Shown here piece by piece: positions 1,773 to 3,527 of a stretch of DNA of 4,470 nucleotides (position 1 is the first letter of the stretch; each line of letters starts with the position of its first letter). The notes under the pieces were generated by a model. That model saw only the letters and a list, made by a program, of their open reading frames with translations. It did not search any database and was not told the origin of the DNA. The position numbers and the translations under genes were made by a program. The stretch comes from a virus (taxonomy: Duplodnaviria; Heunggongvirae; Uroviricota; Caudoviricetes): positions 1 to 4,470 of IMG/VR virus record IMGVR_UViG_2698536618_000011; one strand, written 5' to 3'.

Positions 1773-3527
1773 TTATGCTGCCGGTGCATTTATCTCCAGC
1801 ACCAGACTTTCTATCTCAACGCCATACGCTGCATTTTTTGTAACATCCGTCAGCGTCAGCACATTCAGTCCCAGTGTCAGACTGTCTTTTATGACCTGGA
1901 ATGCCGGGCCAGCCACTCCATTCAGTTTCGGAGTAACCGTGGCACTGCCGGCGGTGAACACCAGCTCCAGCGTCTGCCAGTCGTTACCGTAATCGCCGAA
2001 CTCCCCCAGCTTCGTGTTTCCGGCTTTCCTGTGATGCATCAGATTCACTCTGCCGTCAGTGGTCTGAGTGAAGTACGACATCAGGAACGGATTACCGGTA
2101 CCTGTCATCGCCACACCATCAGGAACGGGAGCGTCCGTATACAGATAAATCCCCAGCCCGAACTGATTGTTGGTCAGTGCGCCTGACAGGCGGAACTTAC
2201 AGGTCAGTCTGCCGCCCTGTGTCAGCAGGGTAATTGCGTCATCCACCGGATGCGTCAGGGACCAGGATTTATTGCTCTGCTTGGCGATCTTAAATACACC
2301 ACCCGACAACTGAATTCCGCCATCCTTAATGCTCCAGCCCTGCGCAGCAGCCTCTCCGGCTGCCGGCAGCAGGGAGATTGTGCGAACCGACGTATCTGCA
2401 GACGGACCCGATGGCGTGTTGCCGCCGGGCGAGGGTTTGATTTCCGGTGCCTTACCACTGATGAAGGCGGAGGTGCGCCCGGCTGCGTTCAGAATAGCGG
2501 TTGCCAGACGATCCGGAATAATGCTCCTGCGCGCCCATGAACTGAAATGTGTCGGGCGGTTTGATGATACCTGGTTTCCATTCGTTCTCGATGCCGCACC
2601 GTAATATCCTGATGCCGGAATATCCGGATCTTCTGCCGGCGCGTTAGTGGCGGTATTGACGCCGTTACCGTCTGTCATGAAGGGCACAAAATAAACGCCC
2701 TCACTCTCCCTGTTTTTATACCCGCCGTACACGGTGTCGTACTGGGTAGCGTATGTATTTTTCCAGTAATACGTCGTGTCACCACAAATCCACGGCACAT
2801 CTGCAGCACTGCCACCATGGCACTGCGCGTTAAACACGGAGAGGTCAGCACGAAACTGTGTCAGCATGGCTGTAAACAGCGCAGGTTGCTGTGCGTGGGT
2901 GGCGGCGCTCATGTCAAACTCTCCCTGCATCCAGCACACCGCCAGCAACACATTTTTCGGGTTCTTCTGTAATGCAGCTTTAGTGCGCGCAATCAGGTCC
3001 TGATATAACGGTTTACCCACACCCCAGCGTGCCGAATCCTGGCTGGCCCCCGTGTCCGCACTGAATGTCCCCTCAGCGCCCTGGGTGAATGCAGAACCAC
3101 CACGACAGCATGGTACCAGCAGGATCCCCGCGTTATTCGGGATATACGGAAGCAGTTTTTTGGCAATATGTAAGCCCTGGCCGACACAGCCGTACTGCCC
3201 TTTGCTCAGGTCTGCCTTCGGATGATTCAGCGTACTCATATCCTGCACATCATGCAGGCAGTGGTCGGCCGGAATAATATCGTTATATCTGCAGGCAGCC
3301 CCAGCATTGGACTGCCCGGCCAGTACGATGACGTAGTACCAATCCGGCTCAGTTGCACCACTGACCACCACATCACCTTCTGCTGCAATCGCCTGCATCA
3401 GGGTATAAGGGGTTATGGCCACCGGACTACCAAACGGCTGCCAGCCCTCTTTCAGTTTATGTGTCAGCTTTTCCGCAAGATCTGACGGCGACGCCGCCCT
3501 GACAACATCATAATGTTTAATCGACAT
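1773..3527 (-). CDS. nanS-p: prophage-encoded sialate (9-O-acetyl-N-acetylneuraminic acid) O-acetylesterase, NanS-p type: N-terminal DUF1737-like region, SASA/SGNH esterase domain, Pro/Ser/Gly linker, C-terminal beta-rich putative carbohydrate-binding domain
   Basis: 584-aa ORF with ATG at 3527-3525 and a good RBS (GGGAGAAA, 7-nt spacer). The N-terminus MSIKHYDVVRAASPSDLAEKL is typical of the DUF1737 head of prophage NanS-p/YjhS-like esterases. The esterase block VIVLAGQSNAGAACRY carries the GQSN nucleophile motif (Ser73, about 3309-3311). A PSPGGNTPSGPS linker precedes the C-terminal domain. The position immediately upstream of the holin is where this gene sits in EHEC lambdoid prophages. 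Confidence 0.88.
   Translation of the reverse strand: MSIKHYDVVRAASPSDLAEKLTHKLKEGWQPFGSPVAITPYTLMQAIAAEGDVVVSGATEPDWYYVIVLAGQSNAGAACRYNDIIPADHCLHDVQDMSTLNHPKADLSKGQYGCVGQGLHIAKKLLPYIPNNAGILLVPCCRGGSAFTQGAEGTFSADTGASQDSARWGVGKPLYQDLIARTKAALQKNPKNVLLAVCWMQGEFDMSAATHAQQPALFTAMLTQFRADLSVFNAQCHGGSAADVPWICGDTTYYWKNTYATQYDTVYGGYKNRESEGVYFVPFMTDGNGVNTATNAPAEDPDIPASGYYGAASRTNGNQVSSNRPTHFSSWARRSIIPDRLATAILNAAGRTSAFISGKAPEIKPSPGGNTPSGPSADTSVRTISLLPAAGEAAAQGWSIKDGGIQLSGGVFKIAKQSNKSWSLTHPVDDAITLLTQGGRLTCKFRLSGALTNNQFGLGIYLYTDAPVPDGVAMTGTGNPFLMSYFTQTTDGRVNLMHHRKAGNTKLGEFGDYGNDWQTLELVFTAGSATVTPKLNGVAGPAFQVIKDSLTLGLNVLTLTDVTKNAAYGVEIESLVLEINAPAA

Follow-up and report, generated by a model that had tools for sequence, protein, structure and literature searches.

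A singleton in-frame deletion beside the catalytic serine probably inactivates the esterase of a nanS-p allele in an Escherichia coli prophage

The window analyzed here (4,470 bp) is the whole of contig CYGF01000091.1 from the draft E. coli assembly GCA_001285485.1, and every gene called in it lies on the minus strand (Table 1). Read in the direction of transcription, it begins with a TerB-domain gene that is cut by the contig end, continues with a gene for a small DUF3927 membrane protein, a spacer and the esterase gene nanS-p, and ends, after a gap of 448 bp, with the lysis genes. Its sequence is a patchwork of well-known modules from the late/lysis operon of lambdoid prophages.

Table 1. 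Genes, domains, catalytic blocks and RNA-related features of the 4,470-bp window
Feature	Positions	Strand	Evidence or remark
Endolysin R (phage lysozyme)	185–718	-	Pfam PF00959, 85 bits
DUF1327/YdfR family protein	769–1113	-	Pfam PF07041, 157 bits
Phage-21-type class II holin S	1118–1324	-	Pfam PF04971, 112 bits
Two hairpins in the 448-bp gap, the second with an 11-bp stem and a T-run	1380–1468	-	z = -2.85
nanS-p allele, 584 aa, frame open, internal in-frame 96-bp deletion	1773–3527	-	
C-terminal lectin-like jelly-roll domain, residues 389–581, full length	1785–2363	-	DUF6645
SASA/SGNH esterase domain, residues ~66–348, without 32 residues	2484–3332	-	Homologous to NanS 3PT5
Block V THFS, residues 326–329, catalytic His327, intact	2541–2552	-	
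Block III MQGEFD, residues 200–205, intact	2913–2930	-	
Block II RGGSAF, residues 142–147, intact	3087–3104	-	
Block I GQSNA, residues 71–75, nucleophile Ser73, deletion junction in the Ala75 codon	3303–3317	-	
DUF1737 N-terminal domain, residues 4–50	3378–3518	-	Pfam PF08410, 56 bits
Terminator-like G+C hairpin and T-run, between the sRNA match and nanS-p	3621–3639	-	Consensus scan only
STnc100-family (PasD-related) prophage sRNA in the 374-bp spacer	3664–3836	-	Rfam RF02076
DUF3927 small membrane protein (TciB in JLK-2012)	3902–4066	-	Pfam PF13064, 72 bits
TerB-domain protein (TciA), truncated at its 5' end by the contig boundary	4063–4470	-	Pfam PF05099, 48 bits vs cut-off 24.4

The esterase is encoded by a single ORF that starts with ATG, has a GGGAGA Shine-Dalgarno-like sequence on its 5' side and specifies 584 residues; RefSeq lists the product as WP_053892871.1, "SASA family carbohydrate esterase." The protein has the three-domain architecture of NanS-p, i.e., DUF1737, SASA and a C-terminal jelly-roll DUF6645, and the match to each of the three Pfam models exceeds the curated cut-off, with the SASA match spanning residues 66–230 and the DUF6645 match residues 435–545. 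A sequence search of the PDB with the protein returned chromosomal NanS (3PT5; E = 6e-99) and the C-terminal domain of phi24B NanS-p (6YP6; E = 1e-29). NCBIfam and PADLOC have no model that matches the esterase or the DUF3927 protein. The window and the gene order of its relatives place the gene in the lambdoid late region, after Q and the cargo slot and before holin S. By type, this nanS-p allele belongs with those of Stx1 phages and H-19B, and an earlier, sequence-only reading of this DNA had rightly recognized a nanS-p homolog in a lambdoid late/lysis region, as the Pfam domains, the two PDB matches and the gene order show.

Bases 1–3520 of the window share 98% identity with Stx1a-converting phages and H-19B, while the 943 bp upstream of nanS-p match the non-Stx phage JLK-2012 at 98.7% identity. 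The Stx1a-converting phages H-19B and YYZ-2008 as well as the non-Stx elements PPyecE_EH1910, JLK-2012 and 2014C-3011 encode NanS-p proteins of 616–617 aa, which share 97–99% identity with the protein of the window outside the gap described below, have the same three domains and the same C-terminal type and are followed by the same S-YdfR-R lysis genes. In contrast to all of these, the copy in the window lacks 32 residues after the GQSNA motif. NanS-p of 933W (L0105) and phi24B (vb_24B_21, gp84), a characterized esterase of 645 aa for which the structure of the C-terminal domain has been solved (6YP6), likewise consists of DUF1737, SASA and jelly-roll domains and is encoded between the cargo slot and holin S; its SASA domain is ~72% identical to that of the window whereas its C-terminal domain is only 35–37% identical. 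The phi24B homolog gp84 has been reported as a capsid-decorating protein that binds via DUF1737 (bioRxiv 10.64898/2026.04.10.717836). Chromosomal E. coli NanS (YjhS, 3PT5) shares the homologous SGNH/SASA domain, Blocks I, II, III and V and the Ser-His dyad but has neither DUF1737 nor the C-terminal domain.

The upstream 943 bp (3528–4470) consist of a 374-bp spacer (3528–3901), the DUF3927 gene and the TerB ORF. The latter is 98% identical to TciA of JLK-2012, with its first 8 codons lying beyond the window end; in NCBIfam it has only a sub-threshold match to DjlA (29 bits vs a cut-off of 162), and it has no match in PADLOC. No stx-like ORF is present in the window, including these 943 bp, and ARAGORN detected no tRNA gene in the whole window. 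The absence of tRNA genes is uninformative because the contig ends within the TerB gene and the tRNA genes of the relatives start ~170–200 bp beyond the window end. The gene order is Q-tRNA(Asn, Thr, Gly)-tciA-tciB-yjhS-S in JLK-2012 and tRNA-Arg-TerB-DUF3927-esterase in strain 2014C-3011, and in the relatives that share this layout, stx is lacking from the interval between Q and nanS-p. By contrast, Stx1 phages carry stx1AB upstream of the esterase gene (slt-IAB in H-19B), and 933W carries stx2AB there, with stxB2 ending 486 bp before the 645-aa L0105. In the place after the Q/tRNA region and before nanS-p where a Stx-converting phage has stxAB, this 4.5-kb contig has TerB, DUF3927 and an sRNA; the cargo slot holds tciA and tciB in place of stx.

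These data bear out much of what the sequence-only reading had said about the surroundings of the gene, namely that stxB lies directly upstream of nanS-p in Stx2 phages, that the 933W allele has ~645 aa, that the upstream 943 bp contain neither stx nor a tRNA gene (confirmed by the ORF listing, Pfam and ARAGORN up to the contig end inside the TerB gene) and that a TerB module occupies the slot where Stx phages carry stx. However, the different cargo to which it pointed is no novelty, since 640 out of 5426 complete E. coli genomes share the layout TerB/TciA-DUF3927/TciB-nanS-p-holin-YdfR-lysozyme (window coverage of at least 80%, best identity ~97%). Several functional nanS-p copies have been described in prophages of EDL933 and O104:H4, including non-Stx prophages (PMC8065619), and in a 2026 preprint on Pas sRNAs, <3% of the chromosomal PasA genes, which lie within the esterase-holin-lysozyme unit, adjoin stx. 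Stx-free nanS-p genes and the TerB-DUF3927-nanS-p-lysis layout are already known and common. The 374-bp region that had been described as non-coding has the stated extent but is not empty: the match to the STnc100 family within it is full length (model positions 1–206 of 206) and scores 108.1 bits against a gathering threshold of 47 (E = 7e-25), which makes it a member of that family.

The loci in the Pas sRNA preprint have the gene order seen here, with an sRNA of the STnc100 family immediately before the esterase gene, and TerB is reported there as a conserved neighbor. The two hairpins between nanS-p and the holin gene sit at the position reported for PasA/PasC and are candidates for these sRNAs only; the main text of the preprint does not contain the PasA sequence. 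Expression of nanS-p increases upon induction with mitomycin C (PMC10462455). Based on synteny and the published induction data, we suggest that nanS-p in the window, if expressed, would be part of a Q-antiterminated late transcript like other nanS-p genes, and that this transcript would read through the STnc100-type sRNA and the terminator-like hairpin upstream of nanS-p.

What sets the allele apart is its length. In an alignment with the three closest alleles (2014C-3011, PPyecE_EH1910 and JLK-2012), the 584-aa protein has one 32-residue gap directly after GQSNA, and the missing sequence is MAYGEGLPLPDSYDAPDPRIKQLARRSTVTPG. The DNA alignment shows the same loss as a clean 96-bp gap between window bases 3304 and 3303, i.e., inside the codon for Ala75; the junction reads CCAATGC|TGGGGCT, and the flanks are collinear and 99% identical on either side. 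The removed stretch begins two residues past the nucleophile Ser73 and corresponds to residues 22–53 of NanS (MAYGEGLPLPDREDAPHPRIKQLARFAHTHPG), which NanS keeps. The two ends of the deletion share no microhomology in this alignment; a GGCT lies 3 nt from the junction, and a slipped-strand origin of the deletion is unsupported given a junction of this kind. Compared with the 644–647-aa alleles of the 933W type, which keep the 32-aa segment, the protein is ~60 aa shorter; 32 aa of this shortfall are the deletion, 14 aa the shorter linker between DUF1737 and SASA, and a net ~11–16 aa come from the linker and the C-terminal region. The deletion leaves the DUF1737 and lectin-like domains untouched, such that a nonenzymatic role of the protein is conceivable from its sequence.

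To locate the catalytic residues, we mapped the blocks listed for 3PT5 (GQSNA, RGGSAF, MQGEFD and SHFS; PMC10792757) onto the window. NanS uses a Ser-His pair for catalysis without the Asp of Block V, and the 584-aa protein has the Ser in GQSNA, RGGSAF, the SASA-type (M)QGE and the His of Block V. The catalytic Ser73 and the downstream His, which the sequence-only reading had singled out for checking, are accordingly in place, in GQSNA and THFS, respectively. An open frame, retention of all four blocks and a deletion length that is a multiple of three are compatible with a tolerated variant. By contrast, the core of the esterase domain is incomplete: the segment after Block I with the GY(D/G)E and RIKQL(G/A) motifs is gone together with the rest of the 32 residues.

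The removed segment is almost unchanged in NanS, and all E. coli allele types that were examined retain it. We also searched 1.84 billion cluster representatives with phmmer, using a 617-aa relative as the query, and aligned the esterase region of 47 matches (29–54% identity). In the columns affected by the deletion, each of the 47 remote homologs has 25 residues or more, and no protein without the stretch was found among these homologs, NanS and the E. coli allele types examined. Despite an overall identity of ~30%, several deleted positions are 85–100% conserved, i.e., Q97 (47/47), E80 (46/47), G77 (42/47), Y78 (41/47), R94 (40/47) and L98 (40/47), and the conserved positions form the motifs GQSNx(V/M)GY(D/G)E(S/G) and RIKQL(G/A). 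The C-terminal 6–8 residues of the deleted stretch (STVTPG) vary or are missing in many of the remote homologs. The Pfam SASA score is 48.3 bits for the deleted and 48.2 bits for the intact allele, and this profile is blind to the 32-residue deletion. AlphaFold2 with 13-sequence alignments gave a mean pLDDT of 58–59 for both the 584-aa protein and its 617-aa relative P0020, with ~25–40 over the SASA domain and 23–42 across its N-terminal part around the deletion site in both proteins, values too low for a judgment on folding.

Among ~15 billion proteins, the exact 584-aa sequence occurs on one contig only (WP_053892871.1/CTZ98309.1). For searches at the DNA level, we chose queries of 36 and 24 nt across the deletion junction; with an 80-nt query, split matches score like a contiguous match. 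The 36-nt junction is absent from the 5426 complete E. coli genomes and from the contigs of the GTDB species-representative genomes, and the 24-nt junction is absent from the GTDB genome, metagenome and viral contigs. Other in-frame deletion alleles of nanS-p are present in the databases as singletons of 594, 590, 580 and 570 aa, and these fit a sporadic decay of redundant nanS-p paralogs.

We suggest that the 584-aa allele is private and that its esterase domain is misfolded or catalytically dead, and we assign a probability of roughly 0.7 to this reading. The domain is most likely misfolded or dead because the deleted residues are conserved to the same degree as the catalytic motif and none of the homologs examined lacks them. 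Compared with functional alleles, the protein has thus probably lost its activity, as judged from the near-invariant residues removed, although the catalytic blocks and the frame are intact. In this scenario, the 584-aa copy would be a decaying redundant paralog that makes little or no contribution to growth on O-acetylated sialic acids.

The main alternatives concern whether the deletion is real and what it does. It is unlikely, and less likely than a private esterase-dead allele, that the 96-bp gap is an assembly or sequencing artifact and that the isolate really has an ordinary 616-aa nanS-p. Such an error would fit with the origin of the window, a draft assembly in which its 4470 bp form a whole contig, with up to 17 related places per E. 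coli genome, with the absence of the junction from all other collections searched and with the existence of other odd-length singleton alleles. However, a graph assembler would find neither a shared k-mer nor microhomology at the junction by which to jump, the gap is exactly in frame between collinear and nearly identical flanks, and similar singleton in-frame deletions also occur on long contigs, e.g., in P0041 on a 186-kb contig. If the deletion is real, it might be tolerated, leaving a trimmed SASA domain that is still an active sialate O-acetylesterase and contributes to the use of Neu5,9Ac2. The open frame, the in-frame deletion, the preservation of Ser73, His327 and Blocks I, II, III and V, the unaltered Pfam score and the variability of the C-terminal end of the deleted stretch in remote homologs all speak for this idea, which we nevertheless consider slightly less likely again than an artifact: the GY(D/G)E and RIKQL motifs are missing from none of the 47 homologs, NanS and the other allele types, and the allele, seen only once, shows no sign of having spread. 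It is improbable that the deletion is real and was selected, with the DUF1737 and lectin-like domains being kept while the esterase chemistry was lost or changed. If this were true, the allele would be a natural separation-of-function variant with which a role in the phage, i.e., virion decoration or mucin adherence, could be tested without sialic acid deacetylation.

The sequence-only reading had instead attributed the length of an intact, functional NanS-p to a distinct, shorter C-terminal lectin-like domain, which is highly improbable. Part of that proposal stands in that the C-terminal domain is a variant distinct from that of 933W and phi24B, as is evident from the low identity given above and from a DUF6645 score of 66 bits compared to 229–248 bits for the 933W type. 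But alleles of the same C-terminal type have 616–617 aa, to which the domain aligns end to end, without a gap and to the last residue, at an identity of 85–94% or higher to alleles of the same type, and the 32 missing residues sit in the SASA domain. This alignment rules out a shorter C-terminal domain as the cause of the length of 584 aa; the protein is short as a result of an in-frame deletion in the SASA domain and not of a C-terminal variant.

With a private, esterase-dead allele as the preferred reading, the sole unusual feature of the locus is a singleton in-frame deletion beside the catalytic serine, which, as judged from conservation, is probably esterase-inactivating. The finding by itself matters little, as the gene family and the Stx-free arrangement have both been described. 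It does illustrate that spacers flanking nanS-p that appear to be non-coding hold known prophage sRNA families. It also illustrates that estimates of esterase dosage from the number of nanS-p genes can come out too high, as copies that are open and well annotated may hide inactivating in-frame lesions of a kind that generic Pfam profiles do not detect.

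The 448-bp gap separating nanS-p, the prophage sialate esterase gene, from holin S has a fold with two strong hairpins (minimum free energy −43.7 kcal/mol, z = −2.85). The prophage sRNAs PasA and PasC have been reported at this position in a 2026 preprint on Pas sRNAs, and by position these hairpins are a candidate for PasA/PasC. Two similar imperfect hairpins, with arms AGCCAGCG...CGCTGGCT and AGCCAGCAC...GTGCTGGCT, are found shortly past the nanS-p stop codon, and in a consensus scan the first of these looks like a terminator of the opposite (+) strand. On the other side of the gene, the 374-bp spacer 5' of nanS-p, which the sequence-only reading had described as non-coding, contains a match to the STnc100 sRNA.

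Features of the window flanking nanS-p
Feature	Position	Strand	Remark
nanS-p/holin S gap	1325-1772		448 bp
Two strong hairpins	chiefly 1380-1468	minus	second: 11-bp stem and T-run
Two imperfect hairpins	1740-1772 and 1575-1620	minus	3' of nanS-p stop codon
Terminator-like hairpin	3621-3639	minus	after STnc100 match
STnc100 sRNA match	3664-3836	minus	Rfam RF02076, full length, 108 bits (gathering threshold 47)
DUF3927 gene	3902-4066	minus	
TerB/TciA gene	4063-4470	minus	open reading frame, cut off at contig end

Four database proteins (P0018, P0019, P0041 and P0037) represent further singleton nanS-p alleles, each with one member on one contig. Their in-frame deletions differ: three lie in the SASA domain and remove 23, 27 and 38 aa, and one removes 47 aa of the C-terminal domain. 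These singletons suggest either recurrent decay of redundant nanS-p copies or recurrent assembly problems.

The TerB/TciA reading frame is open in the window, whereas the annotation of the closest complete genome, that of E. coli 2014C-3011, lists this gene as a pseudogene interrupted by an internal stop; the holin of that strain is also frameshifted. Neither TerB nor the DUF3927 protein matched any PADLOC defence model. The similarity to known phages changes at about position 3520, i.e., at the 5' end of nanS-p: positions 1-3520 match Stx1a phages and H-19B, an Stx1 phage, at 98%, while the match over positions 3528-4470 is to the non-Stx phage JLK-2012 (98.7%). Judging from this mosaic pattern, the stx1 cargo appears to have been exchanged for tciA/tciB, the TerB and DUF3927 genes, via recombination at the start of nanS-p.
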